The translations under genes were made by a program, and so were the position numbers. A stretch of 64,000 nucleotides of DNA, taken from NCBI GenBank assembly GCA_907165135.1, contig OU015568.1, forward strand, positions 4,960,001 to 5,024,000. Reading direction: 5' to 3'. The notes beneath the pieces are model-generated. The model was not told where the DNA came from, searched no databases, and saw nothing but the letters and a program-made list of their open reading frames with translations. Positions 1 to 27,807 of the stretch are shown one piece after another. This stretch comes from Oikopleura dioica (taxonomy: Eukaryota > Animalia > Chordata). Position 1 is the stretch's first letter, and the number at the start of each line of letters is the position of its first letter.

Positions 1-2
1 GA

Positions 3-636
3 CTAACGGACGAGGAAATTCTAGAGGTGCGATACAACGGCCTCATCCTCAAAATGGATGAGATGCTTGGCGGCTCAAAGCCAGCAACAACACTCCCTCT
101 TAAAAACCGCGACCCATTCGAGGCAATCGTTGCTGCTCTTCCGCGGGTTTTTACCGAGAATAAAGACGTCTGGCCCCAAAAAATCTTCATCAAAACGCTC
201 ATTTATGCCAACTCTTGCCAAAAATTCACCGAAAATCCTGCGATGATGCAGCTTGTAAGTAAAATAATTATTTTTCATTTTTAAAATAATTGTTTTGTAG
301 TTTGGCGTTGGCGAAATTTTGCCCGCACCAGTTGTCGCTTGGCAACAGTGGCTCAACTATCCGCTGCTCGACATCAACATGAGCACTGGGGAGGCGAAGC
401 GAGCTCAAGTCGAATTGGAAAAATTTGTCGCCAATTACAAGCCGATGCCGGCTTCCAACGCCGTTCCCACCACCTCCTCCTCCTCCGCCGCCGCCGGAGA
501 CGAAGTCTCAAGCAAGAAAAAGAGCCGACGACTCACCCTTGAACAGATGGAAGATGCAGCAACATCGTACGGGCTTCATGATTCTGATGATGAACAAATT
601 TCTTCTGTTCCTCGTGCAAACATGCCCCAGAATTAG
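3..636 (+). CDS. Orphan viral protein, 5'-partial, two exons (..254 / 301..636)
   Basis: Frame is open from base 3. A GTAAGT...TTGTAG 46-nt intron (255-300) joins ORF 27..284 in frame to ORF 319..636. Confidence 0.55.
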
Positions 637-681
637 AAACGTTATTTTTTGCTTTTATTTAGATAGTTGAAAAGGGGGATC

Positions 682-1804
682 ATGAGTCGCCGCCGCCGCC
701 GCTGCTACCAACCACCAATAAGTCGCTTGTTCATCATTATCATAATGTGCATGTATGCACCAGTGGTGCGCAAAAAATATCTTGCCAATGCATCGATGAT
801 CTTGATAACATCGTCTGATAATTGGTACCCCTTCCGATCATGCTTTGATTCGCACCCGTACGTTGCCCATGACGATTTTTGCAAGTTTGAACATGATCAT
901 TGTGCCGCGGTCTTGTCGCCAACTTCGACGACTACTTCGACCACTTCGACTAGTTTGACCACGACGAGTTCGACCACGACTAGTTCGACCACGACTAGGT
1001 CGACGACTAGTTCGACTACGACGACAAGTTCGACTACGACGACAAGTTCAATGGAATCCACCGCCGCCGCTGCTGACGACGATCTCATAACTTGTCGGCA
1101 AGAAAACGCAACAAAATCTGAAAACAACGACGACGGCGCAAAAGTTCTTCGACCACCAACAGCCAGTCAGCCAGTTATGCCACAAGTGACAACAGTAAAG
1201 ACAATGCCCAGGATTCGCAAAAAGAAGAAAGATGAAGAAATAAAATCGAAAAAAAAATTTTCGTCGACCAGGTAACACTCGAAACAAGGGTGCGTTTTGG
1301 AGTTATGTGGTATTTGGATGCATGGTGGCAGTTGGTTTCATGGTATCAAAAACTTACATGTGGTGTTTTTTGTTAAAAAAACGCGAGTTTTGCCACCCCG
1401 CGTTTCATACCACCCCGCATTTCAAAGCACACCTAGTTTCAAAACACACGTTGAATTACAAAATTTTTTTTTTGAATTTTTTTTTTAGCATTTTCTTCAT
1501 CATTCTGGCGTCGCTTATTGGAACAATTTTGGCTTGTTGTGGAATAGCTGCGGCTGTGCTGAAATGCAAACACCGAGACGAATCTTGCTGCTCGATTTGG
1601 CGACACGTGTTCTATACTCTACAACATTGGATCGAGGCATTTTTCAACGCTCTATTTGATCTTGTTCGATGTCGAAATCCGGTGCAAGAATACAGAAGAC
1701 GTCAAGAATATTTTGACAATCTTCTTTATCAAAATAATCGTCGTCGTCGAAGCTCATTTTTTCGTAAGTTTTTTGCAAAAAAAAGGGAATTATATGATTG
1801 TTAG
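682..1804 (+). CDS. Predicted type I membrane glycoprotein (hydrophobic N-terminus, Cys segment, Thr/Ser mucin stalk, TM helix, Cys-rich tail); exons 682..1271 and 1489..1804
   Basis: Phase-2 intron 1272-1488 (AG|GTAAC...TTTTAG|C) joins ORF 667..1275 to the TM segment IFFIILASLIGTILACCGIAAAVL of ORF 1307..1804. Confidence 0.6.
925..1050 (+). repeat. Coding minisatellite (ACGACTAGTTCGACC-like units) encoding the TTTSS mucin stalk
   Basis: About 7 imperfect 15-18 nt units are visible directly in the sequence. Confidence 0.8.
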
Positions 1805-2700
1805 GTCGAAGGCAGCATTATGAGCGTCAACATTTGTTACCGCCTCACTTGGAAGCCGCCTTTCAAGCTCAACATGCGTATCACCAAGAAATGCGAGACT
1901 TGGCTGAAGAAGGCGACGCCGCTCCCGCCGCTGCTCCTCCGAGACGCTCTTTTTTTCGACGCATTTTTAATCGGCTAAGACCAAGACAAAGAGACAACGA
2001 GCAGTTTGGTGATATTGTAAGTTTGGCTGGAAGGCGACGACCAACTCCTTCTGCTACTCAAATCAATCAGGCTACTGAACGATACGCTTGGTATAGAAAT
2101 CGCAGCAGCAATGGTCAGCAGCCACAGCAGCAGCATGACTTGCCACCTTCTTATAATACAGCGGTTTTCGGCCGCAGAAACCAACAACACGCCGATACCG
2201 CCGATGCCAATGACGAAAACAGCGACTCTTCTTCTTCTGCCACCGACGATTCGTCTTCGTCGTCGTCGTCCTCGTCGTCAATTTCATCAATGTCTTCTGG
2301 AGATGAGGGCGAGGATGAAGCGAGTGGTAGCAGTGACCGATCAGCAGCGGGCGAAATCACAAGCGACAGCGAAAACGGCCGAGACCAGATTTCGCCAGAT
2401 GCTTATCATGATATGGCTTTTAATTCTCTTGTGGATGTACTTGTGTCAAAAGTTGCTTACAACACGGTCGAATCTGTTTTTGAAGAGCTGCTTAATTCAA
2501 CTTGCAAGAAGACAACACTCGCCGATTTGGATATTTTTCCAGCGGATTCATCCGACAACAACAGTTACGATTCAATTGAGCCACTTAGTTCGCCAGCGAT
2601 GAGCCCAATCGTTAAATTCCAGCACAAACCAAGCTACCAAACGCCTCAACATAAAAATCGCTATTCGGTAAGTTTAGTGCACCGCACGCAGCGCTGTTAG
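1798..2700 (+). CDS. Orphan acidic/Ser-rich protein, 300 aa
   Basis: Long ORF abutting the upstream gene; no recognisable domain. Confidence 0.55.
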   Translation: MLGRRQHYERQHLLPPHLEAAFQAQHAYHQEMRDLAEEGDAAPAAAPPRRSFFRRIFNRLRPRQRDNEQFGDIVSLAGRRRPTPSATQINQATERYAWYRNRSSNGQQPQQQHDLPPSYNTAVFGRRNQQHADTADANDENSDSSSSATDDSSSSSSSSSSISSMSSGDEGEDEASGSSDRSAAGEITSDSENGRDQISPDAYHDMAFNSLVDVLVSKVAYNTVESVFEELLNSTCKKTTLADLDIFPADSSDNNSYDSIEPLSSPAMSPIVKFQHKPSYQTPQHKNRYSVSLVHRTQRC

Positions 2701-3029
2701 AAAATAGAATGTCGCCGCGTGGAGCGCTGCTTTCTTTTTAATTGAGTTTTCGCACCGTTTGTGGCGCTGTTTAAGCATCCAAAGCGCACGCCATAATTAC
2801 ATAATTTCAAAAATTACTCAACAATTTTATCAATTAACAACAAAATTGGCAATCAATTGAACCTTCTTGCGCCCATTAAAAATCGCAAAATTACTTAGAA
2901 ATCATATAACTCTTAATTGAACAATCTCCAAGTATTAAAGTCAATTCTTTAAAATTGACTTTTCCTAATAATTTTTCGCGCGATTTTAGCAAGCATAACT
3001 ACCGACAAAGATCAAAACAAACCTCCAAA

Positions 3030-3362
3030 TAGACCGGCGAAAGCACCCCGGCGCAGCCGTAACGGACCAGCCACACAACGGGCCATTCCAAAGACGGCCC
3101 CGTTCCAGCGCCGGCAAAGCCGGCGCTTACACTCATCCCTGACGGGCCCCTTTTCCATGGCCGGCGGTGCCGTACGGCGTCGCCGGCCATTCCAAAGTCC
3201 CCTGACGGGCCCAAAGGGCCCGTCCGCGAGGCGTAGAACCTGCGCATGCGCAGGTTCAAGCGAGCCAAGTACGCGCGAAGCGCCCGGGCGCGCGGGGCCG
3301 CGGAGCGGCCCTGGCTCAAATTTTCGCTCGCGAGCTTCGCTCGCTCGGCTCAAATTTTTCGC
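3030..3362. other. Non-coding GC-rich cluster of perfect hairpins/palindromes (candidate structured RNA or replication origin)
   Basis: AGCGCCGGC-AAA-GCCGGCGCT 3107-3127; TGGCCGGCG/CGCCGGCCA 3158-3189; GACGGGCCC-AAA-GGGCCCGTC 3204-3224; 22-bp palindrome 3236-3257. Confidence 0.75.
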
Positions 3363-3517
3363 AACCTTGTGCGCTTGAAAAATTTTTTGAAAAATAAATG
3401 TAGAAAAATTTTTTTCAGATTTACGGCGACGACGATCAACAAGAACCCGAGTTCTTATCAGCTATCATTTCCTCCACAACTACAGCCACAGACAATGTTA
3501 TTGTCTTTGACACACCG

Positions 3518-3883
3518 TTGAGCAAGGAGCAAGACGAAAAATTTGCTCAATCACCGCTGCGAATGGTTGAACTAGTGGCTCAACACTGCGCCGACAATTC
3601 AGAGCACATGAAGATGATGATTTCGGCCGCCACTTCTCCCCTACCATATAGTACCAGCGATGAAACTTTTGGCGCCGCCGATGCAACTGTTTTTCTGTCT
3701 GCATGTGACGCTACAGTTGTTGCCGACGACGACGACGCCGACGACCAAATTGCCGCCGCCGGTGAAGAAGGCGCCGCCGCCGCCGATTCTTCTGCTTGGA
3801 GTTGGATGACAAAAACTCCACCACCAAACACTCCGCCAGCTACACCACCGCCAACGCCCGCCACGCCAGAGAACGAATGGTGA
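3518..3883 (+). CDS. Orphan acidic/Pro-rich protein
   Basis: ORF with the A/C-rich coding bias typical of this element; start uncertain. Confidence 0.4.
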   Translation: MSKEQDEKFAQSPLRMVELVAQHCADNSEHMKMMISAATSPLPYSTSDETFGAADATVFLSACDATVVADDDDADDQIAAAGEEGAAAADSSAWSWMTKTPPPNTPPATPPPTPATPENEW

Positions 3884-4420
3884 GCTTTGTTTATATCTTT
3901 GTTTGTTTACATCTTTGTAGCAAAAAGGAAGTAAAGAAAGAAAGTGAAGATGAGGAAAAGGAAAATCAAGATCCAGAAGCAGCAGCAGCTCAGCCCGCGC
4001 AAGTACCAAGGTGAGAACAAGAAAGTGAATAAAAAGAAATTTTATCAATTTTGTAGCAAGAAAAAAGAAAGAAACGAATGGGGGCTGATCAATTGATTGC
4101 AAATCAATTTGGAACTAGCACGCCGATTCTCCAACGTCACGAACGAAGACGAAAGAAGAAAAATAATTAAAAGAAAAATATTTTCTTACCAAAACATGCA
4201 CACACACTCACATATGATGCCGCTGCACGGCGCTGGTCACTTGCGCCGTGCCACAACGGCGGCGCCCCACTACTATTTTTTCATTCTAAAACTGTCAATC
4301 AACTTATTGAATAGCTCATTCTAAAATTTTTTAAAAATTCTTGAATAAAAAACACACACACACTTACACACAAACACGCTTGGTCTTTCTAAATTAAAAC
4401 GCTCTTCTCTTGTAAGCATT

Positions 4421-4801
4421 TTGTGCATGCTTTTTGCTGAAGTAGCGGGCAGGAAAGAGCAAAAAAATGAACAACGAAGCAGACGATCAAAAGCAACACC
4501 AATTCGAAGTATTTCACCACCACCACCAACATCCCCTGGGGTAAGATATTTAGCAATTAAAAGTATGTGCTATTTTATGTGTAGAAGGAAAAAGGAGGAG
4601 GAGGAGCAGCACGAGTTGACATATGTTTTGACGTCAGTAGAGGAAGAAGAATCAGCCCAGTCCAGACCACCACTAGAGCAGAGCGATCGTCTTCTCAAAC
4701 CATTCAGGACTCGTCGTACTTACTCGATCCGCAGCTCGTCTCCGCAAACAATCGACCAACGCCGCCGCCGCCGCCGCCGCAACGGAATCAAAAACCTCTG
4801 A
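4421..4801 (+). CDS. Orphan basic protein
   Basis: ORF track only; no motif. Confidence 0.3.
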   Translation: MCMLFAEVAGRKEQKNEQRSRRSKATPIRSISPPPPTSPGVRYLAIKSMCYFMCRRKKEEEEQHELTYVLTSVEEEESAQSRPPLEQSDRLLKPFRTRRTYSIRSSSPQTIDQRRRRRRRNGIKNL

Positions 4802-4829
4802 GCGGCTTGGTTGTGAGTCGAGCAAATCT

Positions 4830-5579
4830 ATGGAAACGGAGATATCTACGCCGGCGGAGAATATTGGCTCGCCAAGAGCAAGAGAGAATGGAACAAGAGA
4901 GACTGGAGCGGGAGAGATTGGAAACGCTAAAAAGAATCGAGCCTCGTTCCAATCACCAATTCCGCTACCGCCGCCGCCACTCCAACCATTACTGTCTTTC
5001 CGCAGCAACGATCAACAAATGAACGACGACGACAGAGCGCTGACAACGACGCTTCCCGATCTGCGAGTGATAACTCGACCACCACCACCACCCCCTTCGC
5101 CGTCGATGGAAAGTTCAGTGACCCCTGTCACCATCATCAACAACAACAACAATCGTCAAGAAGAGGAGGAGGAGGAGTGCCAGAGCACGCGCCGCAGCAG
5201 CCGCCGACGACCACGACGACGACGACGACGACGATGCACCGATTGCAACAACTTTCTAATGAGACATCTGGCGCTTTGTTTCACCCTTATGCTTTGCGTA
5301 ATATGGCTAGTCGCAGGTCTGAGCGTATTAGCAGTAAAAACAGCGCAGAAAAAGACAACAACAGCGGAGACAACGCTAATGGCGCGCAAAATTGCCAACC
5401 AGATGATCGAAAATCACACTCGACACAAAAACCACCACCGTCATCATCAGCACCATCGTCAGCGAAAACCAGCAACAACAACGACGACGACGACGACGAT
5501 GACGACGACAACAACTGTGGCGATTCACGAAAAAGCCCAATTTTTGGAGAGACGACAACCGCAATTCCCGTGCACTTGA
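4830..5579 (+). CDS. Predicted single-pass (type II-like) membrane protein with poly-Arg/CxxC before the TM and a His/Thr-rich distal part
   Basis: Hydrophobic segment LALCFTLMLCVIWLVAGLSVLAV preceded by RRRRRRRCTDC. Confidence 0.55.
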   Translation: METEISTPAENIGSPRARENGTRETGAGEIGNAKKNRASFQSPIPLPPPPLQPLLSFRSNDQQMNDDDRALTTTLPDLRVITRPPPPPPSPSMESSVTPVTIINNNNNRQEEEEEECQSTRRSSRRRPRRRRRRRCTDCNNFLMRHLALCFTLMLCVIWLVAGLSVLAVKTAQKKTTTAETTLMARKIANQMIENHTRHKNHHRHHQHHRQRKPATTTTTTTTMTTTTTVAIHEKAQFLERRQPQFPCT

Positions 5580-5778
5580 GTACAACAAGACAACAACAAG
5601 AAGAAGAGAAGGAAGGCAGCGGTATGAAGAGTACAAATCAATAAGTAGCCGGCGAAATTATCCTCACAAGTTATTACCACCACAACAACAACAACCACCA
5701 ACAACAACACAACACAACAACAAAAATCAGCGGCGGCAAAAACAAAAAAAGTACCAAGCCAACTATTCCGTCTATCAG

Positions 5779-7560
5779 TTGTGTGGCAGGAGAGCGCCCA
5801 AATACACGAAAAAGTATCGAGATAGCTTATTAAAATCTCTTACTGATAAATCGGGAATATTTGAAAGCTCGCCTGCAAATTTTTACATTCGAGGAAAGCA
5901 TACTCCACGCTGGTCAAAAACCCTCACTCATGACGACTGGTGTAAATTACGAGATTACTTTTTCAATTCTGACGATGGCCAAGTGTTGATGCCATTCGAG
6001 TTTTACAATAATGATGAGCGCCGCGGTCGCCGCCGCAGCCGCCGCCGCCGCCGCCGCCGCCGTCCAACGTCCAAAAAAGCTCGTTTTGACGACTATGAAG
6101 AGCACGACCATGATGATGACGACGACGACGATTGCGACTACAACTATTACGAAGAAGATGAAGACACTTATGATGACAGTTTTGAGGATGGTCGATTTAA
6201 ACTCATTGATCACGATTCCATATTTTCAATGATCTCGATGGAAAACAAGTCGGCAATTTTAGCTGTACTTGAATTTTTCTGGGTAATGCTTGAGATAGAT
6301 TTCCAATCGCCCCCGCTGGAAACTGTTCATCATTGGAAAAGCGAGCCAAATTTGGACAAAACTGACATGAGAATAGTCGCCAACGCAATTCGATTAATCA
6401 ACCCAAATTTACCCAGCAATTTTTTCCAAGAAAAATACTCAACCGCTAGAGAATTCGAGCAAATAGATTCCGCCGATTGCTATACAAATGGACTCGATGT
6501 AACAAGAGAAATTCTTCACCTCCTTTCAAATTGCATCACTTTCTCCTATATTTCGGCAAAAATGGATGGCGATAACTCGGCGGCGGCGCCAGCTTATCAA
6601 CAAAATGGCAATATTCTTGAGAAACCAATACACATGAGTGATATGTACATGTACTTGGTTTATCTCGAGTTGACAATCAGAGAATGCGCGCCGTTTTATG
6701 AATTTACGACTTTTTTATCGGACAGTAATGAAACAACTAGGAAAATGCCGGCAAGCATTGTAGCCGACTGGCGCTCAGATCGACCACGTCAATTTCGCGA
6801 AAATTATATACCCACTGCTGGCGCCTCTACACTCAACCCTAACCCTAACGAGTGTAATGAAAAGAAGAAGGGACTGTGGAGAACTTTTTGCTCGCAGGGG
6901 CCTCAGTCAATTGCCGATGTAAAAACATTGTCAAGAAAGCGATCAATATGCAGCACGTATAGTGAAGCGGTTGACACAGAAACCCTCAACAAAACACTTT
7001 TTCGCCTCAGCATCCTAAAACCAGTAACCAATCACCCACAAATCGCCTATTTGATGACGCTGAAGCGCTTCTTCAGCGGTTTCTGCTTTCTTGAGCAAAG
7101 AAAAATTGAAAAAATTTTGAAAATAACTTCGTATGAGCAAGAAATTCTCGACACGCGACTTCTTGGCAACATGGAGAGTGAAGAACAACGTGAACGCCGT
7201 TTTTCACTTCAGCATTTGATGGTCAAAGCGCGAAAACACATTTACTATCAACATCGAGCGCGAATCAAAAATTTGCTAAAACGGATGCTCGAAAATTATG
7301 TGAATTTTATTGCAACTTGTGGATCTGCTCCAAGTCTATCAAAATGCCAACTTCGCCGAGTGCAAACTCCACCTTCAAACCCAATTGCCTTTTTTGACGA
7401 TCACTACAACTCGTGGGAGATACGCTGCTCAACTTGTATTTCAACTTATAATAACGATTACAATCGAATAGAAGGTTTCATAAACCAGCTTGGCCATAAT
7501 CAAGATTTTGATCTCAAATCTGAGTTTATGTCAATGCGACGAGCTCAGCTGCATCGGTAA
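5779..7560 (+). CDS. Orphan 593-aa protein (Arg-rich NLS-like run, acidic patch, globular C-terminal two-thirds with CxxC)
   Basis: Long, high-complexity ORF; no family recognised. Confidence 0.7.
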   Translation: MCGRRAPKYTKKYRDSLLKSLTDKSGIFESSPANFYIRGKHTPRWSKTLTHDDWCKLRDYFFNSDDGQVLMPFEFYNNDERRGRRRSRRRRRRRRPTSKKARFDDYEEHDHDDDDDDDCDYNYYEEDEDTYDDSFEDGRFKLIDHDSIFSMISMENKSAILAVLEFFWVMLEIDFQSPPLETVHHWKSEPNLDKTDMRIVANAIRLINPNLPSNFFQEKYSTAREFEQIDSADCYTNGLDVTREILHLLSNCITFSYISAKMDGDNSAAAPAYQQNGNILEKPIHMSDMYMYLVYLELTIRECAPFYEFTTFLSDSNETTRKMPASIVADWRSDRPRQFRENYIPTAGASTLNPNPNECNEKKKGLWRTFCSQGPQSIADVKTLSRKRSICSTYSEAVDTETLNKTLFRLSILKPVTNHPQIAYLMTLKRFFSGFCFLEQRKIEKILKITSYEQEILDTRLLGNMESEEQRERRFSLQHLMVKARKHIYYQHRARIKNLLKRMLENYVNFIATCGSAPSLSKCQLRRVQTPPSNPIAFFDDHYNSWEIRCSTCISTYNNDYNRIEGFINQLGHNQDFDLKSEFMSMRRAQLHR

Positions 7561-8185
7561 GTGCGCATTATGCAATTTCCGCGTTCAATTTTTGTTAGTG
7601 TTATGGAAAATCACAGATCCATTTTCGACTTTTTTACTCATCATAAATTCAATTTTGGTCTACTCAATGTGCAAAACAGCAGCATTCTTGCAGCGGCTGC
7701 TGAAATTGCAGAAATTGAGAATCGCCATCATTGTGACACGCCGATGATGATGACCCCAACTCCGGCGGCGGCGGCGGGAGACATTGCATCAAAAGAAACT
7801 CAATCTGCTGCATTTGAAGTCAGCAACCCTAACAATGCAGACAATGATGATGATAAATTGATAGGTAACAACAAATTGAGTTCATAGCTCCTGTCTTCTA
7901 ACACAAATTGTCAAGAGCCGAAAGATAGCGCCGCCGCCGCCGTTGACGCCCCTGCCGACACTGGGTCAATCATTGAGATATCAAGCCAGTCTTCAGATGA
8001 TGATGACGACGACGAGGACGACGATCCGGTAAGCGCCACCCTGCGCCCACGAGCGCCGCTGCAGGCGCTCTAATTTTTTTTTCAATATAAAACCAATCAT
8101 CAAAACATTATTCAGTCATACAACTACGAGCCAAACAAAACTTTTACAGCAGAGCGCAAAAAACTGCTAAAAAAGCAGCGGCGTA

Positions 8186-10126
8186 ATGTCTCCACTCAAG
8201 CTGCTATTCAAGCATCGTTGCAAGAAGAACGATTTAAGCCTATCCGACTCGGAAATCGAGGAGGGTCGACTAGTGATCGTCGAGTCGTCGGATTCGGAGC
8301 AGGAGGAGGAAAACAAGCGCGAGAAGAATCTCAAAAGACCAGCATCGACACCATCAAACTCGTCCACAGATCTACAACAACAACCACCTCCAGCCAAGAG
8401 AGCAGCAGCAGCAGCAAACAGCAGCAGCCAAGTGCAACAACCAATAAAGCTACGACTAAAAGCTTTGAAGGGTGCAGCGAATCCGTGCCAATATTTGATG
8501 CACACTTCCGACGAATCGGCCTCAAGAAACTTCTCCCAAAACCACCAGCCAAATCAAAAAAAGATGATGATGAATGGTATTTGCCAAATGGAATATATCT
8601 CAACCCAAACTACAACGGCGAGCGGCGACGGAACAACACACAGCGACAAACCAAAGGAGGAGGAGGAGGTAATTTATCTTTTCTTAAATCAAAAAAGACA
8701 CAATCTAGAATCTTCCCCCGCCACCGATTCCACCACCAGTCGCAGAGTCAACTCCAACCAAATTCACAACAACGCCAGAGATGAAAACAGTGACGCCGTC
8801 ATCAAAAATCTACAACTGCAAGAGAAATCTCACACAAACACTATTTGGCAAAAGGTAATTTACAAATGCGACTGTGTGTGTGTGTGTTATTATGTGCTTT
8901 TTAGAAAATCGCCCCCAAAACAACCAGATGTGCAGAAAATAGCCACCAGCGAACCGTCGCCAATCAAGACAACAGTGACACGAGAAACTCAAACGGATCC
9001 GCTGCTGCCACCACCACCGTTTCAGCGGCCACAGCATGCACCAACAATCTCCAGCAACAACAACAACACTCAGCTCATCATAACAATGACAAATTACGGT
9101 CTTCTCATGACGCCAGTCAACAATTCCAATGTTCAAGTGAGCATCAACGAACTCAACCTCCCCAAAGCGTTCCATCCCATCCCTGGAACAATGCCACAAA
9201 ACATTGGAGCCAAGCGTCTCTTCATGAATGTGAGCAACCCAGCAGTAGCACCGGTGAAACCACCTCGACGAAAGAAGCAACAAAAATCCACAATCAACTC
9301 ACCGAAACAACAACAACCACCACCACCACCACACATTGGGCATCACAACCAGCACAACACCTCCATTGGCAGCAACAAAACCACTTCTTCTGGCAGCAAC
9401 AGTACAATCCCTGCATCTGGAATCATGATGGATCACACGCAGACCATCAGCCATTCAACAACGCCAACTACTCCTCAACTCAATACAACTATCCAGAGTT
9501 TCAACAGCGAATCCAACAGCAGCAGCATTTTGAGCAACAACGATTTCACAGCGGCCGACCAATGTTTTCTTCTTTCGGAGGAGAGGCAACACGTGGACAA
9601 AGCTATTCTGGAGCAAATTTACACCGACCAATTTATCAACAGAGCAACATCGGCAACAACTGGCCAACTTGGCCAGCAGACAGTCATTCCACCACCGCCA
9701 CCGCCGCCTACCAACAACCACCACCTGACTTCGCTGCCAGCGCAAACCAACACTACTACAGCTCACATTTCCAACCAAACAACGTTAACCAACAGCAGAG
9801 ACAAGAAAGCAGCGCCTCCGGCTTACAATCAAATCTTCCCACCGAAAAAGAATTCAATTATGACAAAGGATCAGCTTGCTCTCTATTTTCAACAACAGCA
9901 GCAGCAGCGGAATCAACAACTCTTTGCAGTAGCGGCGGCGGCGGCGGCGCAACAGCGTCAACCACAACGACAATTTCTTTACCGACAGCAATTATTACAC
10001 CAACAAACATACAACAGTTACGTCCCTCATCATCATCATCCAAGCAACAGCACAACAATTCAACAAACGACAAACAATTCGTACCCACATCACCAGAAAA
10101 CTACCGCCCAATTTCAACCCCGATGA
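8186..10126 (+). CDS. Orphan 646-aa Q/P/N/T-rich low-complexity protein (transactivator-like composition)
   Basis: Long ORF with basic NLS-like patches; may contain introns. Confidence 0.55.
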   Translation: MSPLKLLFKHRCKKNDLSLSDSEIEEGRLVIVESSDSEQEEENKREKNLKRPASTPSNSSTDLQQQPPPAKRAAAAANSSSQVQQPIKLRLKALKGAANPCQYLMHTSDESASRNFSQNHQPNQKKMMMNGICQMEYISTQTTTASGDGTTHSDKPKEEEEVIYLFLNQKRHNLESSPATDSTTSRRVNSNQIHNNARDENSDAVIKNLQLQEKSHTNTIWQKVIYKCDCVCVCYYVLFRKSPPKQPDVQKIATSEPSPIKTTVTRETQTDPLLPPPPFQRPQHAPTISSNNNNTQLIITMTNYGLLMTPVNNSNVQVSINELNLPKAFHPIPGTMPQNIGAKRLFMNVSNPAVAPVKPPRRKKQQKSTINSPKQQQPPPPPHIGHHNQHNTSIGSNKTTSSGSNSTIPASGIMMDHTQTISHSTTPTTPQLNTTIQSFNSESNSSSILSNNDFTAADQCFLLSEERQHVDKAILEQIYTDQFINRATSATTGQLGQQTVIPPPPPPPTNNHHLTSLPAQTNTTTAHISNQTTLTNSRDKKAAPPAYNQIFPPKKNSIMTKDQLALYFQQQQQQRNQQLFAVAAAAAAQQRQPQRQFLYRQQLLHQQTYNSYVPHHHHPSNSTTIQQTTNNSYPHHQKTTAQFQPR

Positions 10127-10321
10127 TTTTTAAAGAAATTGATACAGGTAATACAAATTTAAAAACCTTTTTATTTATGCTCTTATTCAGAAGACATAAC
10201 CTGCGACAACGACGGAACCATTGATTCAATTCTTGGACTTTGACTAACTCACTTTCTTTCAATTTTTCTTTTCTTACTAATGCGGTGTTTTAATAAAAAA
10301 CAAAAAATAATTTTAACTGAT

Positions 10322-11311
10322 TTATTTATACATCCAGGTCAGGGGATAACTTAAAATAGCAATTTGATAAGCAAGTATCCGATGAACACGAACATTTGAT
10401 TCTTTAAAAACATTGCGCCGATGAAAGGTGTTTCGCAGAATTCCATCTCTAAAGACTTGTGGTTCAATCTCACTTAGCAGCTGTTTTGCATCTTCAGGAG
10501 TTCGAATGTATTCTGTATCGTTGACTGAGCCCCATCCGTTGGCGTAGATTATTTCAGTTCTTGTTTTTGATTCTTTTTCGCCAGTCAAGTGATTATACAC
10601 AACACTTGTTGACTTTGTGCTGTAAAATGCGTCGACACTTATTCTCAAAAAACCAGAAAGATTCTTCATTAAAAGCTTAGTAGCTTTGACAACGTCGCGA
10701 TCGTTTAAAATTGTAATGACGAATCTATCGCACATTTTGCCCCCACGACCTTGTAGATCAGCTCCAGCAAGAAATTTATTGTGTTGCCATCTTTGTTCTA
10801 AATTTTGAAATAATTATTTTCAAACAAAAAAAACAAAAAACAAACGAATATAATGTTTGATTGGAAATCGAAAGGAGCTATTTCCTCCTGCAAGCGCTTC
10901 AATTTCTTCCTCTTCGAAATACGAATCATCTGGCACAATGACAGGAAAGGCGCTGTCCAAAAAGTTCTTTTCTCGAATAAGGATTTCATCATCAGATGCA
11001 ATGTTGTTATCTTTGGCGGCGGCGGCGGCGGCGGCGGTGCTTGAGCGTGGTGGAAAAAACCATTGAATTTGCAATGGCGTCAAATTAAAATCTCTTACAT
11101 TGTTTGTATAATAATCAAGAAATTTTTTTGGAATGTTTTTCGGCAGCCCATCCTGTCGCGCTCGAAGTCTTGTTAATTTTCGAATTCTCTTAATTTCGGC
11201 AAATTGCCGGTTGGCAGTCTCGCGTATTAAATCGGCTTGAGTTTGCGGCGGCGGCGGCGGCGGCAGCGGCGACAATGGTGGTGAGGATGATGGTAGTGAC
11301 ATTCTTAACAA
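10322..11311 (-). CDS. Spliced ~310-aa protein; C-terminal part resembles the terminal-protein-like N-terminal region of Polinton pPolBs
   Basis: 48-nt intron 10798-10845 fuses ORF 10820..11311 in frame to ORF 10322..10735. The ending ...ESNVRVHRILAYQIAILSYPL resembles the xSGW..I..L.I.I..Y.PL pattern. Confidence 0.55.
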
Positions 11312-11352
11312 CTCCCCTTTTTTATACTTGTTTATCGAATTTATTGTTAGAG

Positions 11353-14078: not shown

Positions 14079-14185
14079 ACCATAACAAAATGTTTTTTGA
14101 TAATTTTATACTTTTTAAAATCGAAAAAGAGATGAAGCAAAGCTAAAACTCTAAAAGGAATCTAGACACAAAGAAATTGCTCTAA

Positions 14186-16825: not shown

Positions 16826-16907
16826 ATGTTTTTATACTCGATAATATTTTTTATTTCACCACGGCGCTGTTACTTCTTTACAGCTCAACAGCGCCTCCAA
16901 TATATAA

Positions 16908-18726
16908 TTATGAGCCGGCTTTTCTTTTCCCTGAATTCATTTTGCTTCTGTCAGCCATCGTTGACAAAATTGTCGCCTCTAAAAATTGTTTTTTTCTCAA
17001 AAAAATAAAAGTGAAACAAACCTTTTCGATTCCCATCAAGCATAATCGCATCAATGGGTATCTTCATCACAAGAACATCCCAATTTTCTTCAAGAATCTT
17101 TTCAAACGTAATTCTTGCAGTTATCGTGGCACTCTCTCCTTGTCTATCATCAAAAAGCAACGGAACCATCCAAGATTGATTTTGAAATTGAAAGAAATCC
17201 AATCCTCCTCCAATTGATTTGTTTTCATAACGTCCATTATGCATCAAGAAATTCTGATAGTGTTCCAGAGGATCAGTCCAAGGCGTCAAAAAAGCATTGT
17301 AATTGTCAACCAAAACTTCAAATTCCCTTATTTTAAAACCATCCTCATGCATCGTCGTTTTTGTTATACATCGTTGATAATCCGGTCTTTGACGTTTTTT
17401 GTTGGACATACCAGTCAACACTATCATATAAGGCACTGGTCCAGAGCTCAACTCCACCTCATAACTTGCAAGCCCTTTTGACAAAACGTGTATTTTTAAT
17501 CGAGGATAAAAAAAGGGAATCTTGAGCATTTTATCACTGTTACCAACTTTGATTGGTTTTTCACATTCTCTTGCTTTGCAGAAAACACTCTTTAGCCAAA
17601 AATTATGAAGATTTGGCTCTTGACCCTCTATGACGACATCTTCAGCTGTTGGAATTGAAGCTCTTTGTAGCCAAAAGCAGGCATAACTTTTGTTGTCAAT
17701 CTTTTTAACTCGAATTTTTGGAACTTTTTTGGTGATTTTATGCGCTTTGAAGGTCGATGAATTACAAATAGAAGTTTTATCTGTAACAGGTGCTTCATTG
17801 ACATTTAAGATTTGTTCAAGTGTTGAAACATCATATTCACCGCTCGTGATCTTGTCTTTGTAAGAAGCAGGATCGTCTTCTCCTTTTGGAATTGCACAAT
17901 CGCACTTATTCACAGTATCATGAATAAGGGTTTTTGTTTCAAATTCAACTCCAGATTCTTCATTAAACGGAAATTTTAGCTCATCTGAAAAAAAATCCGT
18001 ATCTTCTGATCGACATTCAATATAATCACTATGCCTCATGATATAATTTTTTGTTGGAGCAAGAGTGGTATTAAACCAGAGGCGAGAGGCTGGAGGTAAA
18101 ACTCGAGCTTGGCGAGCCAATCCGTGCGAAATTGGCGCTTTAATCTTATAAATATGATGCTTGAACTCATATTTTACTTTTCGTTGGTCTTTTCCAATTT
18201 TTATATATCGAGCCGATTCAAGGTTTTCCTCTCGCCATATGGACGTCGCATGCAACAACCGATTCTCAAGAGCAGTCAAATTATTACTCTTCAATCTGTA
18301 ATCATTCAACTCATTCGCATCCAGATCATAAGCATCAAAATGACCTTCAGGAAAAAGCTCAATTTCTTGCGCTGATGGTGAGTAATTTAACTTTTTTATA
18401 AAATGATTGAAAAAAGCATACTCTAAACCTTCTGTGTACGACGAGAATATCGTGCTGTCCATAATGTTTATGTCCATTTTTGAAAATATTTTTGACCCGA
18501 TTTCATTATCAGGAACGCAATTTGATGGGATCTCGATATCAAACTCAAATTGCATTTTGTCCAACTTGATGGGAAGTTTGTCTTTTGGAGTTTCAAACCG
18601 CCAAGTGTATGGCAAATCTTTAACCCCCAAACGTCTGACCGTTTTTAATCCATTGAATGGATCCATAGGGCGCTTGGAATCTTTATAAAATAAAAGATTT
18701 CCATAATCGCTTGTTGATTCTGGCAT
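16908..18726 (-). CDS. Polinton-type double jelly-roll major capsid protein
   Basis: YAFFNHFIKKLNY...KIKAPISHGLARQARVLP...GPVPYMIVL...IDAIMLDGNR matches the Polinton MCP layout. A possible terminal 43-nt intron (16979-17021) moves the stop from 16951 to 16908. Confidence 0.75.
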
Positions 18727-19041
18727 CGTTATTTTTCTTCCTAAATTAACAGGTTAAAAAGAAAATACTTGCTGCTGCTGCTGCTGCTGCTGATGTTTAT
18801 CGTTTGTCGATGTTCTTGTTGTTGTTTTTGTTGATTAATTGTGACGATGGAGAGAAGTTGTGATTGCTAAAAAGAGAATTTATTTAAGAGAATTAAAAAA
18901 AGAATTGAGTGAAAATTTCTCTCTTATTTTCAAAAGAGAATATAAGATAAGACTAATAATAGTCAATTGGATAACAAAGCAAAAAATCAGGGACGCGTAT
19001 TTGTAGTTTCTGTAGAATCCATCGATAAATCCAGGTGAACA

Positions 19042-19284
19042 CTAAAAATTTTTTGAAAAAACATCATAAACATGTTGCCACACCTCTATTGAGTTTACCA
19101 GCGTCGTCTTCGAGAGTACGCGTTGCTTCGTCTCCGCTTTGGGGCCTTTCTTGTCGACTTTTTTCGTTTGGTTGTTTTCCGGCGACTTGAGCGTCTTTTT
19201 CTTACAAGAGGTCCCACTGAATAAACTCGTGGAAACCTCGAAATTCGAGCCATTGGAACACACTTTTACAATCTTAATAAACAA
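19042..19284 (-). CDS. Small Lys-rich orphan ORF
   Basis: ORF track only. Confidence 0.25.
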   Translation of the reverse strand: MFIKIVKVCSNGSNFEVSTSLFSGTSCKKKTLKSPENNQTKKVDKKGPKAETKQRVLSKTTLVNSIEVWQHVYDVFSKNF

Positions 19285-19313
19285 AAATTGATTTTTTTAA
19301 AAACATTGTATTT

Positions 19314-21415
19314 TTACTTCATTTCAGAAATAGGAATAACAACATTCAATTCATTTTCATAATATCGTCTAGATTGAGGATGACCAAATGAATTCACCAA
19401 AGAAAATGTTGGAACTTTTGACCCCTGATGTATTTGAATAACTTGAAACAAATCTCTCGACCATTTTTCTTTAAAACCTTTTACAAAATTCTTTTTAGAA
19501 TTCGAAGATTTTGCTATTCTTACAACATCGCCTAATCCAACTAGCGATTTTCGCTTTCTATTATATAGAGATCTTTTTTGTTCAAGATAATCAAATAAAA
19601 CACGAGCGTTTTTACGTGTTATAGCAGAAGGAGCGACTCCAATAGTCGAATGCACAGAGTTATTAATAGCTGTGTTGACTTCTTGAAGTATGTGGATCCA
19701 GCGTTGAACACCGCCAGAAGCAGTAAAATAACGACCCAATCGAGCTTCTAACGTTCCACTGAATTTCGTTTAATAAAAAAATTTTTATTTTTAAATACTC
19801 ACTTGAATCGCTCGACGAGAGCGGCCTTGTGTCTACCCTGAAGATGAACAGGTGTCATCGACCATCGGGCAAGCAAGTCATAAGTGTCTTTTTCAAATTC
19901 AACGCCTTGATCAGAGCAGAAAAAAGTGTGTCCAGGAAGATCTTCACCTATTTTCACAAAAATTGATTCCAATTCCTTGGCTATTTCAGCAGATTTAAGA
20001 GACATTAAAGGAGCAACAAAACTTCTGCGCGAAAGTCCATCAATAACAGTAAGAATATATTTATAGCCATTGTTTAAATGAGCATAATTTTTAAATGCAG
20101 CGATTGTGTCGGAAAACAAACATGTAAACAAACCAGTCGCAATAATTGGATTACGCTCAAAATTAGATTTAAACGGCTTATGTAAGGAAATCGCATTGTT
20201 CATGCGTTTAAAACGAGACAAATTCATACCACTATAAAAAGAAGGATTTTTACTATTATAAAACAAATCAAGAGCTGAGCTTGGACGTTGAGAAAAAAGA
20301 GGCGCATCAAATGTTGTTGTATTATTAACCCCAGAAGTTGTCGATGTCTGCTCCGCCGCCGCCGCCGCCGCCGCCGCCGCCCCGTCCGACGTGCGATTCA
20401 TTCTCTTCGTCGCCGTCGTCAATGTAGAGTCGATCCTCATCGGACTCCTCATCGGATCGAGATTCGATCCCGTCTGGGTCATAATAGTGGGATTTTTTAA
20501 TGGCGCTTGAAGTTGGAGAGACGGCATTCTTACTTGACGATTGAGATTTTGGTTTAGCGAGTTTACGCTGTTTTGTGGCTCGTACGGTAGTGACACGTCC
20601 AGCGGCTCGCTTTGATCGCTTTGGTCGTTTTGAAAGTTGCTCGTCTTCGTCACGGTCGACGTCGGCGTCGTCATAAGCGTTGTTGTAAAAGGGAGTTTGT
20701 TCTCTGATACGTCGTCTGCCATTGATTCGGGCAACTCTTGAATTCGATTTGACGCTATTGGCAATAGATTCCGTCTCGGAGGTGTCTTCATCACTTGCAG
20801 TTGAATTGGAAAACTCAATTGCCCTTTTGCGTTTCGAGTCCCGATTACTTGCGTTAGAAATTGCACTCCTCCATTTTCGGTAATCATTGCTGGTGATAGG
20901 ATACTCTTTGAGGCGACTTGGGCGAAGGAGTGGTTTTCGGGGATGTTTTGTAACTGGTTCAGGTTCCGCGAAATTTGATTTTTCCAAACGGTTAGATCGC
21001 TTTGATTTGACGACTGGACTTGCTGATCCAGAATCGGACCGTCGTTTGCGAATATTGCCACGTCGCGATTCTCTTCGGGCGCTCGTTGCTCGAGTGACGG
21101 GTTTTCTTGAAAGCTGACTACGCTTGATACGGGCTTGAAGTTTTTGTCGTCGAGTTTTTGCCTCTTGCTCGAGCTTTTTGATGTGGAATTCCTCTTCGTC
21201 TTCCGAGTTTGAGAACTCGACTGATTCGCTTTCTCTTTCGCTTTCGCTTTCGCTTTCGCTTTCCGATACGCTTCTTTTTCTGCTCTTTCTCGTTGCTCGA
21301 TCACTTCCGTAAGGAATTTCTCTGTTGCATATACCGGCGATAGTGCGGGCGCTCGTGTCCTCCTCGGTCTCATAATCAGGATATGGCTCTGCTTTGGTCT
21401 TTGGCGCAATAACAC
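19314..21415 (-). CDS. int: Retroviral-like (rve, c-integrase) integrase; two exons; true start uncertain
   Basis: YILTVIDGLSR, FCSDQGVEF and LVERF|NGTLEARLGRYF after removal of the 44-nt intron 19759-19802; HSTIGVAP; GDVVRI; KGFKEKWS. Confidence 0.92.
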
Positions 21416-21515
21416 GGATACGATTTGTCTTTGGATTCAGTTCCCAAAATGAAGCAATATTATCCAAGATTGATAATCGAACGAAACAACCACCGTTTAC
21501 CAGTGCGTTATTCAT
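20325..21515 (-). CDS. 396-aa Arg/Ser/Lys-rich protein overlapping the integrase ORF (candidate DNA-condensing core protein)
   Basis: Long ORF in a different frame from the integrase ORF. A 41-nt GT-AG intron (21517-21557) lies just before the ATG. Confidence 0.6.
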   Translation of the reverse strand: MNNALVNGGCFVRLSILDNIASFWELNPKTNRIRVIAPKTKAEPYPDYETEEDTSARTIAGICNREIPYGSDRATRKSRKRSVSESESESESERESESVEFSNSEDEEEFHIKKLEQEAKTRRQKLQARIKRSQLSRKPVTRATSARRESRRGNIRKRRSDSGSASPVVKSKRSNRLEKSNFAEPEPVTKHPRKPLLRPSRLKEYPITSNDYRKWRSAISNASNRDSKRKRAIEFSNSTASDEDTSETESIANSVKSNSRVARINGRRRIREQTPFYNNAYDDADVDRDEDEQLSKRPKRSKRAAGRVTTVRATKQRKLAKPKSQSSSKNAVSPTSSAIKKSHYYDPDGIESRSDEESDEDRLYIDDGDEENESHVGRGGGGGGGGGGADIDNFWG

Positions 21516-21753
21516 CCTGATTAAAAAAATAACTACTAAAAAATTTTTACGACTTACCTTGAGTGAAAATTGTAATTTTTACCGTTTGCGGCTTCTTATT
21601 CAGAAGAATAATTATTTATGAATAAACATGCTTGTAAACTCTATTATATAATTATGAAAAAGAGTAGAGACAGCAATCACGCCGCCTAGCGGATTTTTTA
21701 AAATACCTAGTATAAATACCATAGGTATAACCTAATTATATCACAACTCAAAA

Positions 21754-22161
21754 ATGTTTCAACATCTTAACTTTGATCAACTTCAACAAATTGGCAGCAA
21801 GTCCAAGCGAGCTAGAATTTTAAAAACAAACTTCAACCACCACGTCATCAAAGGAAAGGAACAGTATTACATCAAAGCGAGCGTTGCAGAACTTGTTGAC
21901 GCGGAAGGAGAGGAAAAGTTTGGGATTGAAAAATTGGAGATCAACAAAACAGCCACTTTTGCACTGATTGAGAATAATTTCAATCTTGACTGTCCGAAAA
22001 CACGCAACTGGTTTAAAAGGAAGTGCCAGAAGCTCTTCGAAGAGAAAACACCCTCATCGTCTCAATCTACGAATACCAGCCTCAAGCCGAAGAGTACAAG
22101 GGAAAATACATCACCGATCCTGAATCTCAGATCGACGGGCGATTCGTCATCTGTGGATTGA
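21754..22161 (+). CDS. Orphan 135-aa protein immediately upstream of the ATPase
   Basis: ATG downstream of TATAAA motifs (21711, 21726); stop 1 nt before the ATPase ATG. Confidence 0.55.
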   Translation: MFQHLNFDQLQQIGSKSKRARILKTNFNHHVIKGKEQYYIKASVAELVDAEGEEKFGIEKLEINKTATFALIENNFNLDCPKTRNWFKRKCQKLFEEKTPSSSQSTNTSLKPKSTRENTSPILNLRSTGDSSSVD

Positions 22162-22162
22162 A

Positions 22163-22891
22163 ATGCCCCAGCATATAATCAAATGGGTCCCCGATCCGCG
22201 CTTTCAACATCCTAGCGCGCTTCTTATATCGGGAACCACTGGTGCAGGTAAAAGTTATTTCGTAAAAAATATAATTGAGAAAGAGGGAATAGTAGGAGAC
22301 ATTAAACATATTTATTATTTTATGCCTAGACTAGAAAATTTGGATATTCAACCGTTACCCCATCAACAATTATACTTGATGGAAGGTTTGCCAACTAAAA
22401 ACTGGGTTGACGACACATTTAAAAGTGAAAATAAAAATTGTATGATAATTGTCGATGACATGTGGTCTAAATGCGTTGAAGACCCAGTTATTGAATATCT
22501 TCTAACATATGGTCGTAGGCACTTCAATGTCTCGCTAATCTTCATTGCTCAAAACTTTTACGAAAAGAGTCGAAAGGCGATCACTCTCAGGTATGAACAC
22601 ATTTTTACCATTTTTTAAAAAGCTTTATTTAGAAACTGTATGACTGCATATATTTTATTCAAAAATAATACTGACACTGGTATGAATAAAACTATTGCCA
22701 CGAAGACAGGAGAAGTGGACGCCTACAATTCAGCCATGAAACTCTTTAAAGAAAGAAGAATTCCTGCCTACTCGTACGTTATATTTAATCGAGATACCAT
22801 CAACATGGACCAAGCAACTGTACTCACTAATTATTTTGGTGAAATACCGGGGCTTGGACCTTGGTTGTGGATTTTCGGGTATAATGACTGA
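22163..22891 (+). CDS. A32/FtsK-family genome packaging ATPase; exons 22163..22590 and 22633..22891
   Basis: Walker A GTTGAGKS, Walker B IIVDD, GRRH, IFIAQN. A 42-nt intron restores ITLRNCMTAYILFKN. Confidence 0.92.
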
Positions 22892-23085
22892 TTCGGAAAA
22901 TAAAAATAAAATGGGCATGTAAATTTTGTTTTGTCTGTTTTGTATTTATTTTTAGTAGATGAAATTTTTTGACAATATGTCGCTTATAGAACTTGGGCAA
23001 AAAGATGTGACTATTTTATCGAATTAGAGAAAAGTAGTGAAAAAGAAAGAACATTCAAAGAGAATCATGCTTTATGGTTTTTAGA

Positions 23086-23511
23086 TTAGAGCAATCGCAA
23101 TTGAGTATACTTGAATCGTACAGAGTAGCTCCGACGAATGGTCGCATATTTCAAAGTATCTTCGTCAAAAATAGATGGTAAGCAGGCGGGTTCCTCCTTG
23201 GAGATGCGCTTCACAGATGCAACGGAAGCAGCTGTAATTGCTCCAACAGGTTTGATTTCTTCTGCATCGCAAAAACATTCTTCAATTTCGCCAATTGGGT
23301 ATCGAAGAGTGGTTACGATTGGATTTACTTTTTTGAAGAATTTTGCAATTCTTTTGGAAAGAGTCTTTTTCTCTGGCTGGATTTTTTCAATCTTGACAAT
23401 CATAGTAGTGGTAGTGGTTGTTGTTTGTTTTGACGATTGGTGATGATATGAAATTGACAGTAAGCAGTGAGTATTTATACGCCCTGGCGCTAGAGTTTCT
23501 ATCAATTTCAA
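23086..23511 (-). CDS. Small orphan protein
   Basis: ORF track; the likely start is an internal ATG. Confidence 0.35.
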   Translation of the reverse strand: MKLIETLAPGRINTHCLLSISYHHQSSKQTTTTTTTMIVKIEKIQPEKKTLSKRIAKFFKKVNPIVTTLRYPIGEIEECFCDAEEIKPVGAITAASVASVKRISKEEPACLPSIFDEDTLKYATIRRSYSVRFKYTQLRLL

Positions 23512-24129
23512 AAAAAAGAGTTTGTTTTGATCTTTGTCATGTTTTCTAATCGCCGATCGATAGGTGCATAATTACTGCTACGCCGCCGCCGATCGCAATA
23601 TACAATTCACAGCTACTAAAAATCGGCACTTCCGCTCGCCAAAGACCAAAACAAATAACAAACTCTCTAGAACATGCTGCCAACATATAATGCGAGTTTT
23701 GTAAACAACCCTTGCCCCTTTCTTAGCTAAAGGGTGAGAGTGTTAAACTACAATGAGAATAACTCGAGTTCGAATCTCGACATGAACATGCATACTTATC
23801 AGCTATCAATTCCTCACAATCAAAAAATTTTTTTCCTAACTCAAAAACCATTAATAACAAACGAAAATGAAACACTGCTTTTAAAAACTACTCCAAAAAA
23901 CAACACTCTAATGAAAACAGAATATGAATAACTATTCGTGATAACAGATCTACACACTCTTTGACTACACAAAAGAACCGCACAAACATCAAAACAAAGA
24001 CACTTTTTTCTAGAAAAATAAATGTTTTTATTTACAGCTCAACTTTGGAACAGATTGGAAAGATTTTTGCGCGCACTTGGTGGTGGTGGTCTTGAATCTG
24101 GACACTTGGAACTTGGTGGTGGTGGTGGA

Positions 24130-24683
24130 GATTTACTCGCGTCGAATCACACTCGCGCCGTCGATGGCGAAAGTGCGGCCCGCGCGAGTAGTGATGACAA
24201 CGCGGGCGGCGCCAGATCGAAGATCCGACCACAAATTGTGAAACGCCTTTTCATAGGCCTCTTCCAATCGTTGGAGCTCGACCTTGAGTCGGTCTCGACC
24301 AACAGCGTCCAGATTTTCGGCGAGCGAATCGTAGATCGCCTTCCAGCTGGGTTCGCGTGGGAGATCTCCTGATCGACGGGAGATTCACCAGGCAAAATGA
24401 TGGCTGGGGGTCCTAAATAAAACGTTTTTATCTATGAACAAAATCAAAAAAATAAACTTACGTCGAGAGCCAATGGTGCTGGTGAGTCGTTTGCCAAATT
24501 CTTTGGCTTTTTAGCAAAAGTGGGGAGGGGCGCTTGATCCCGATCGCGGTTGCCACCAGCGCGAGCAGTTTCGGCGCTCTCAGCTTCCATATGGGCGACG
24601 CTGGGATCGTCGTGGATGGTGGTTGACGAGGTGGACGGGGTGTCGAGCATTTCGACAGCGTTGGCCAGGTTCGCTTGAGCCAA
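24130..24683 (-). CDS. Probable spliced orphan gene (exon structure unresolved)
   Basis: GTAAGT donor at 24461. A protein-like downstream frame reads ...PSWKAIYDSLAENLDAVGRDRLKVELQRLEEAYEKAF... Confidence 0.3.
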
Positions 24684-25510
24684 ACCAAGGCTTCTTCGAA
24701 GCTTATTCTTCGAAGCTCTAGTCTTGGCGGAAGTGGACGCTCGCTTAATTATTTTTATTTAATTGTTTGGCGTAAAAAATTTGAGGATGATGGACATGTG
24801 ATTTTAGTTTCAATTATTTTAAGTTGATAAAGTCTATAAAAATTCTAAGTTTTCAATTGTTATGGTTTTTGATTGTTTGTATGTTTGTGTGTTAGAGTTT
24901 GACGAAGTGAATTTCTGACTGATGATAAATATTAAGTTTCAAATAATTTTAAGTTTTTTAAGTTGATAAAAATAAAATTTTGTTTACTTTTATGATTATT
25001 AATCCTAACCCCATTAATATTCCAAGAGATGAGTGATTATGTTTCCCATTCTTTTTGTTTATTGATTTATAATTAAAGAAAACAAATTTATTGATTTTAT
25101 GGTGTTTAGATTGAGTACTTACGACCATGGTGGTGGTGGGTGGGTGGGTGGGTAGGTGGACGGACGGAGTCAAGTGACACGCAAGAACTGGTGATGAGAA
25201 AAATCGAAAAACGACTTTTCTCTTTGCTGTTCCAAAGCAAACTGACGTGTTTTCATTTTTAGCCCTGAAGTAAGCAGCTGTTCTAGAGAAAATTTTGCAT
25301 GTTTTTCTTGGAATTTGAGAATTTTACTGAGAATTTGAAAAACAATAACAACCGATTCTAGAAGCATGGTGGTGTCGAATTCTGGTGGTGGGGCCCGGCC
25401 CGAGGCGATAATTATCTTTGACAGAGAAGCAACAACTCAGCCGCATCCGATCAGTCTACAAAAATACAAGATAGAGAAAAGACGCTTTTTATTTTTTCGA
25501 TTTTTGAAAA

Positions 25511-25736
25511 ATGGACGACGCAGAAGATCTTTATTTCGATAGAGAAGGTTGATTATTTTATTGAATTGTTTATAACTTTATTTTCAGATATGAAACGATT
25601 ATTTGAACTTGATACAAGAGTGTTTCCACCAATTTGGTTTATCAACAAAGAAGATACAACTGAAAATCGAAAAGAATATTATGAGTTTATGAAACGATTA
25701 TGGAAAACAACGAAAAGACTTTACCCAGAAAAATGA
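25511..25736 (+). CDS. 61-aa spliced micro-ORF (MDDAEDLYFDREDMKRLFELD...)
   Basis: ATG at 25511, 40-nt GT-AG intron 25548-25587 in correct phase, stop at 25734-25736. Confidence 0.45.
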
Positions 25737-26239
25737 TCAATTATTCTACTGTACTGTACAAAAAAATACATGTCAATTTACTACACTTTTTGGTCTGATA
25801 TGCCCAGAGGGCGATTTGCAGGGAGTTGAAAGCAGGTAATTTTCAAACTGCGCGCCAAACGGAATTAGCCATTCAGCGACAGCCTGCAACACCAGATACC
25901 CTACCATATATATAACTACTCGCGCGCTGCATTCAAAATATCGGCAAAATTTACAGTTTTTGTAAATTTCGGACAGATGCATGCTCTGTTCAAACTTTTT
26001 AAAACGGATTTGAAATCAGCTTGTCCCGCCGGTTATCCCAGTATCATTAATTTTTCTGAACTCGGAATGCAACCTGGTGAACACAAAAATCACCATTTTT
26101 GACCCTTTATATTTCTTCATCCCTTTTATTTTAGAGAAAGTTAAAAAACAAAAATACTTATTTGAGCTATCTTAAAAACATATTAAAGAATAAAAAGATC
26201 GGACAAGTATTTCGGGTACTTAATTTTTGTGTACGGACC

Positions 26240-27483: not shown

Positions 27484-27807
27484 AATCAACAAAGAGAATC
27501 GGTTTTTCAAGCAATAAGTACCTTCCATAGAAGGTGGCAAATAATTAGTTGCAATTAGACATACAAAAAAAGATAAATTCATTAGAAACATAAAATTTAT
27601 TTCTTCGTTCATTCTTTATTTTTTATGGTTACAATAAACACACTCTTATAAATTCTTTTCTAGACCTTTTGAAGAGTCCCTTCTACCTTACTTATCAACG
27701 AATTAAAACTGTTTATAAAAAGAACCTTTCTTAAAAGTTAATAATTCAACCCGAGTGGTAAATGAGTAGCAACTAAAGTCCTTAGCCTTAGAAAAAGATT
27801 CAGTAAA

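Follow-up and report, generated by a model that had tools for sequence, protein, structure and literature searches.

Conserved short introns, probably removed by host splicing, in the core genes of a Polinton lineage from Oikopleura dioica

A 64,000-nucleotide (nt) stretch of the genome of the larvacean Oikopleura dioica (contig OU015568.1, positions 4,960,001 to 5,024,000, forward strand; hereafter the window, in whose own numbering all coordinates are given) contains the right part of what is, judged by its gene content, an integrated Polinton/Maverick carrying genes for a protein-primed DNA polymerase B (pPolB), a retroviral-type integrase, an A32-like packaging ATPase and a predicted double-jelly-roll capsid protein. 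All four core genes, as well as a gene downstream of the polymerase, are interrupted by short intron-like segments, and comparison with distant relatives identifies these five segments as old, inherited introns that are not specific to this copy. The reading that we favor, with a probability of about 0.8, is that the segments are inherited introns of a Polinton lineage and are spliced by the host; the lineage would then likely depend on the host splicing machinery.

The seven micro-introns listed in an initial annotation of the window were all found where it had placed them. Each starts with GT and ends with AG on the coding strand, is 38-48 nt long and AT-rich (GC 0.13-0.32 inside the segments versus 0.33-0.50 in the flanks), and would introduce a stop within 1-23 codons if retained in the message. 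In coordinate order, they interrupt an accessory gene (255-300, plus strand, 46 nt, phase 0), the gene downstream of the polymerase (10798-10845, minus, 48 nt, phase 1), the polymerase (11567-11604, minus, 38 nt, phase 2), the capsid gene (16979-17021, minus, 43 nt, phase 1), the integrase (19759-19802, minus, 44 nt, phase 2), the ATPase (22591-22632, plus, 42 nt, phase 2) and a short accessory gene (25548-25587, plus, 40 nt, phase 1), and the frames stay open after the acceptors for 111, 157, 70, 22, 147, 85 and 48 codons, respectively. The first and the last, which have no relative to be compared with, are candidates, the last being the weakest of the seven with just 12 codons from the first ATG to the donor. 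A mechanical intron scan, its criteria too strict for a test of chance, recovered 3 of the 7 segments. The likeness in size to host introns was likewise borne out: those of a selenophosphate synthetase (SPS2)-like host gene in the window measure 46, 45 and 38 nt. For O. dioica at large, the available parts of the sources give a median intron of 48-51 nt with 11-12% of introns non-canonical (PMC8008620) and describe GA..AG introns as numerous (PMC7072748).

A single metagenome scan provided five related loci (L001-L005, polymerase identity 42-52%), and the comparison proposed with the initial annotation, that positions should be conserved while intron bodies diverge faster than exons, came out in its favor. 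An intron is present at the same codon and in the same phase in 12 of the 13 site-by-locus comparisons possible for the five testable segments, namely 4/5 for the polymerase (L002, L003, L004 and L005), 4/4 for the downstream gene (L001, L002, L004 and L005), 1/1 each for the integrase and the ATPase (both L004, where the ATPase intron has 41 nt) and 2/2 for the capsid gene (same donor site in L001 and L004), more agreement than chance would give. Intron lengths range from 38 to 93 nt across loci (39 to 93 nt in the relatives) with all three remainders modulo 3, and for 11 of the 12 pairs compared the bodies resemble those of the window no better than shuffled sequences do (3% of shuffles reach the remaining pair); such unrelated bodies speak for the age of the introns, not for their origin. 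L004 preserves the whole module (ATPase, integrase, capsid, polymerase and downstream gene) in the order of the window and with all five introns. The C-terminal capsid intron, previously called only probable, gains from its counterparts of 93 nt (L001) and 85 nt (L004), both of whose acceptors were chosen by eye within a poorly conserved tail. The polymerase intron is precisely missing from L001, which is collinear across the site and thereby fixes the boundaries of the segment. The features of host (U2-type) introns found overall are a GT donor or one of the host's GC/GA donors (GC in the downstream-gene intron of L001 and L004), an AG acceptor, a host-like size, a fixed position and a free body. 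No relative came to light in viral_contigs, searched with alignments A1, A2, A4 and A5, or in an initial metagenome search that used the capsid alignment.

Database proteins tell much the same. Of four integrase matches, three (P0006, P0007 and P0008) stop at the donor codon and the fourth (P0009) is a canonical intronless integrase, and similarity to all three matching capsid proteins (P0003-P0005) gives out at one and the same glycine. The motif preceding the polymerase intron was followed in ten proteins, four of which stop there while six continue, two of the latter being gene models in which introns are not visible. P0020, which is identical to this polymerase frame, terminates at the donor; the intron is missing from P0040 too, as judged from its protein. 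On a quick tree of 22 rows (five of them under half filled) each of the family's three subclades has members with the polymerase intron, and on this distribution it is likely to be ancestral and to have been lost at least once.

Two readings that dispense with inherited introns can be weighed against these data. The first, which takes the element for a fossil and the segments for assembly errors or for insertions peculiar to this copy, draws on vertebrate Mavericks, most loci of which are eroded, with insertions read as introns by Genewise (PMC8097293, in the part available to us). The recurrence of the same positions and phases in distant relatives refutes it for the five tested sites, and DNA contigs match the window across such sites (for example, record 11 of DNA run X3 matches 10409-11470 without a difference, across the intron site), which leaves it with a very small probability. 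The second invokes ribosomal frameshifting or stop read-through, both of which occur in other viruses, in place of splicing. It is hardly credible here, as the segment length modulo 3 shifts between relatives at one site, and nothing but the donor and acceptor dinucleotides is kept.

Run X3 also informs on selection within the species, since two forms are present in it, one identical to the window and the other a family with deeper coverage and ∼88% identity to it. Among the rows listed, 11 of 12 indels fall inside the element, 4 in introns (215 nt), 6 in intergenic DNA and 1 in coding sequence (11,116 nt), this single coding indel adjoining a masked repeat; three indels of the related family lie within the ATPase intron. 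Among the substitutions listed, the 30 in the polymerase and integrase frames were scored (10 elsewhere were left out), and 21 of them occupy third codon positions (P 4e-5). These counts point to purifying selection on the exons. One could still suppose that these are domesticated genes, in other words an ancient fixed insertion that gained host-like introns and has been inherited vertically without moving, and intron gain is indeed typical of host-resident genes. We consider this improbable: the nearest named polymerases, gene models of O. dioica from the same family, are on four differently named chromosomes, the identical copy coexists with the divergent family in X3, and the integrase, capsid, ATPase and end motif have been kept together and in order, with three subclades in the family.

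Under the favored reading of inherited, host-spliced introns, an ancestor of the element would have acquired its introns during residence in a short-intron host genome. The element would be transcribed in the nucleus by host machinery and the host spliceosome would remove the intron-like segments, while purifying selection would retain exon junctions and splice dinucleotides and let the intron bodies be replaced. Copies would keep multiplying via the integrase, with an occasional precise loss (as in L001) or gain (as in L003) of an intron. Without splicing, the integrase would end two codons past its likely catalytic glutamate, the ATPase would lose its last 85 codons, and the polymerase and the capsid protein would lose their C-terminal tails.

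Whether this particular copy is alive is a separate matter, which hinges on the polymerase gene (11353..16798, minus strand). It is spread over the open frames 14186-16831 (881 codons, containing the start), 11601-14105 and 11353-11566, along which P0010, P0014 and P0016 align, and it matches Pfam PF03175 above the curated cut-off (E 3.5e-13). In addition to the intron, there is a second break at 14106-14185. The initial annotation had seen no further lesions in the capsid, integrase and ATPase genes, which is correct (they are open apart from one intron each), and it overlooked this break. Between the two flanking motifs, the relatives have 158-188 residues, against ∼237 codon-equivalents in the window. 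Over the break lies a 175-nt segment (14032..14206) with the ends AGTAGT...ACTACT; the two arms of a perfect 13-nt inverted repeat (14032-14044 and 14194-14206) delimit it, and it may be either a longer intron or an inactivating insertion. The copy may be dead because the second break is absent from relatives: the introns would be real and inherited, and the inverted-repeat segment would have inactivated the polymerase. We place this only a little below even odds, and it is compatible with inherited, host-spliced introns because it concerns the copy, not the lineage. The segment is missing from L001, L003 and L004 as well as from the long single-frame relatives P0014 and P0016, its size is unlike that of the other introns, and the inverted repeat was reached by 3 of 1000 shuffles. 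On the other hand, 7 of 152 real tiles also reach such a repeat, neither a 6-bp (target) duplication nor a second copy of the segment in the window was found, the remaining core genes are open, and a contig of the related X3 family matches part of the segment (joint 14029-14132), which may accordingly be shared and tolerated. The odds that this copy is functional are, in our view, about even.

Several other observations weigh against the favored reading. Splicing of the segments is something that we infer from comparison alone, all five relative loci are metagenome-derived and come under one record prefix, and the integrase and ATPase comparisons involve one DNA locus each (L004). The polymerase intron is dispensable, as it is absent from L001 and P0040. 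At the second break, the polymerase of the window is ∼150-240 nt longer than its relatives, and all three loci covering the site (L001, L003 and L004) read through it. The counts of differences given above use 12 of 199 indel and 40 of 1331 substitution rows, and the element itself has its left end beyond the window and no recognized protease or minor capsid gene. RNA carries no weight on either side: four raw runs compared with 10000-29900 matched by 3, 3, 35 and 38 reads, most of them partial matches and none across a joint, and a difference at every third base of the host genes there shows that these runs come from a divergent population. Of the earlier claim that the lineage is adapted to host splicing, the inheritance of the introns stands by virtue of the shared sites, while splicing itself remains a deduction from DNA and the activity of this copy is made doubtful by the extra polymerase break.

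At a polymerase site that lacks any insert in the window, L003 contains a 342-nt GA..AG insert (L003:3127-3468, 59% GC) with four short hairpins having 3-nt loops. P0001, P0012, P0013, P0017 and P0036 end at this same point in E or D, in keeping with a GA donor. The insert and the five truncated protein clusters together suggest that a sister clade gained a non-canonical intron of the host's type. A broader scenario, which we regard as possible and offer tentatively, is that of a still-mobile lineage that has evolved in step with the unusual spliceosome of larvaceans: every core gene would need splicing, inserts rich in hairpins or delimited by inverted repeats (the L003 insert and perhaps the 175-nt window segment with its Polinton-like ends) would go on giving rise to new introns, and some members would use GA..AG or GC..AG introns that few animals process. 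If so, the host splicing code would amount to a natural host restriction, and introns could be followed in these viruses as they come and go.

The Polinton identity proposed in the initial annotation was upheld by the combination of pPolB, retroviral-type integrase, A32/FtsK-like ATPase, predicted double-jelly-roll capsid and end motif. The element occupies 1..25920, hence at least 25,920 nt in agreement with the claimed >25.9 kb, and its left end is outside the window. The right end is marked by ACTACT (25915..25920, plus strand), located between the element and host DNA, where genes begin at ∼26.3 kb; (ACT)2 is the Maverick end motif according to the available part of PMC8097293. No AGTAGT occurs before 14032 in the window, the sequence of which is free of N. 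A left-arm gene (5503..7560, plus strand) is related to a frame of L005 (23% identity, E 8e-16), and we infer that positions 1-5500 belong to the element as well. A GC-rich part of this arm (3000-3400) has no clear gene and is possibly regulatory. Pfam scans of 33 and 67 element frames matched neither an adenovirus-like cysteine protease (which may be split, divergent or beyond the window) nor a minor capsid protein, and these missing matches are no evidence of absence.

The capsid assignment (16908..18726, minus strand) is a structural prediction. The 600-codon frame 16951-18753 has no match in Pfam or among PDB sequences, and Atlas scores of 0.81-0.88 are leads only. A model built from seven sequences reached a pLDDT of 50.8, which is low confidence (an earlier one, at 39, was too poor for use alone). 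With it, all of the top 8 rows of VIA-align were capsid or scaffold proteins of the double-jelly-roll type (best Z 10.0, with 153 residues aligned at rmsd 3.6), and the capsids of mavirus and Sputnik led in Foldseek with TM-scores below 0.25. Structure prediction, one of the checks suggested at the outset, thus agrees with a major capsid protein, within the limits of this model. The integrase gene (19314..21373, minus strand) has a long low-complexity N-terminal part and matches rve under the curated cut-off (E 0.003, and 2e-4 for L004). Both of its exons align in order to the intronless P0009 (E 4e-14 and 6e-13), itself an rve protein with E 2.5e-11. The break falls in the P0009 motif ERFNRTLK, represented in the window by VERF-X-GTLE with X at the junction; the intron follows the ER-motif glutamate by two codons. 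The packaging ATPase (22163..22891, plus strand) matches PF04665 above the cut-off (E 3e-9), and its exons are 65% and 52% identical to L004. It is preceded by a small gene (21754..22161, plus strand), at whose place L004 has a 136-codon frame without a significant match.

For the gene downstream of the polymerase (10322..11302, minus strand; 39-54% identity in four loci), the intron was upheld in all four loci and the start was corrected from 11311 to the first ATG at 11302. Its alignment with gene model P0024 has a 16-residue gap at the intron 10798-10845. No family was found for it in Pfam, PDB sequences or Atlas, and the idea that it might be a stand-alone terminal protein was unsupported among the proteins compared. 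Gene models P0012, P0015 and P0024 fuse the polymerase with a neighboring gene or the capsid; these fusions, together with P0020 ending at the donor, imply that current annotation misreads this polymerase family. A short arginine-/lysine-rich frame between the integrase and capsid genes (19095-19265, minus strand) resembles a DNA-packaging core protein. More GT..AG candidates of 41-50 nt are located between open frames of accessory genes (1764-1804, 3369-3418, 19042-19083 and 24413-24461), and 8855-8904 and 10148-10190 resemble intron candidates by eye.

To our knowledge, little is known about how and where Polintons express their genes. Introns in all four core genes, shared across 35-65% protein identity, would mean that expression is nuclear and host-spliced and has long been under selection, and the shared sites supply exact junctions for RNA tests; members of the family with and without particular introns, non-canonical donors included, make up a natural comparative series. 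Adenoviruses and other DNA viruses that replicate in the nucleus use the host spliceosome, and adenovirus-type viruses share pPolB and a double-jelly-roll capsid; they are not known to integrate by a retroviral-type integrase and they splice mainly to produce alternative messages, unlike the host-like micro-introns found here inside enzyme cores. In its pPolB, integrase, A32-like ATPase, predicted capsid, (ACT)2 end and integration in an animal genome, the element resembles animal Polintons/Mavericks (eupolintoviruses, adintoviruses). It differs from them in having a conserved intron in all four core genes, whereas the available parts of the sources describe intact vertebrate Mavericks without introns (PMC8097293) and nematode Mavericks with intronless core genes and intron-bearing cargo genes (bioRxiv 10.1101/2022.07.12.499685). 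It also exceeds 25.9 kb, with protease and minor capsid unrecognized, compared with the 15-20 kb given for Polintons in the part of PMC5718144 available. Spliceosomal-type introns in integrated Polinton-like viruses have a parallel in dinoflagellate eupolintoviral elements, which contain introners, i.e. repeated copies mostly of host age or younger and ∼25% of them in coding regions (PMC12166617, accessible part); the introns described here are instead short, unrelated in sequence and fixed in core genes across 35-65% protein identity, a repeat scan for introner-type copies having covered the window alone. Term look-ups in the accessible text of PMC10748475, PMC8502044, PMC12220804, PMC3671162, PMC6431247 and bioRxiv 10.64898/2026.07.28.741278 turned up no text about spliceosomal introns in core genes. 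In the literature searched (subscription papers, Repbase and supplements were outside its scope), neither this larvacean family nor conserved introns in the core genes of Polintons are described.

A practical consequence concerns surveys. The claim that screens based on open reading frames would see only fragments applies to the integrase and the ATPase, which are cut in their cores. It is overstated for the capsid protein, with 568 of ∼590 codons recovered, and for the polymerase, for which frames of 1806 (L004) and 1853 (L001) codons are still recoverable; little is lost of these two because their introns are near the C-termini. Even so, a requirement for intronless frames (PMC8097293) or for a polymerase frame of at least 900 amino acids, as used in the survey of PMC10748475, would, as far as the available text of these papers goes, file copies such as this one as fossils.

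Beyond the element, the host selenophosphate synthetase-like gene (47300-48620, minus strand) contains an in-frame TGA immediately upstream of the first intron, as would fit selenocysteine. A tandem duplication of ∼3-3.9 kb with two galactosyltransferase genes spans 29400-36300, and at 59918-63146 a reverse transcriptase frame (61238-62887), presumably Penelope-like, is flanked by 247-nt repeats, both direct and inverted.

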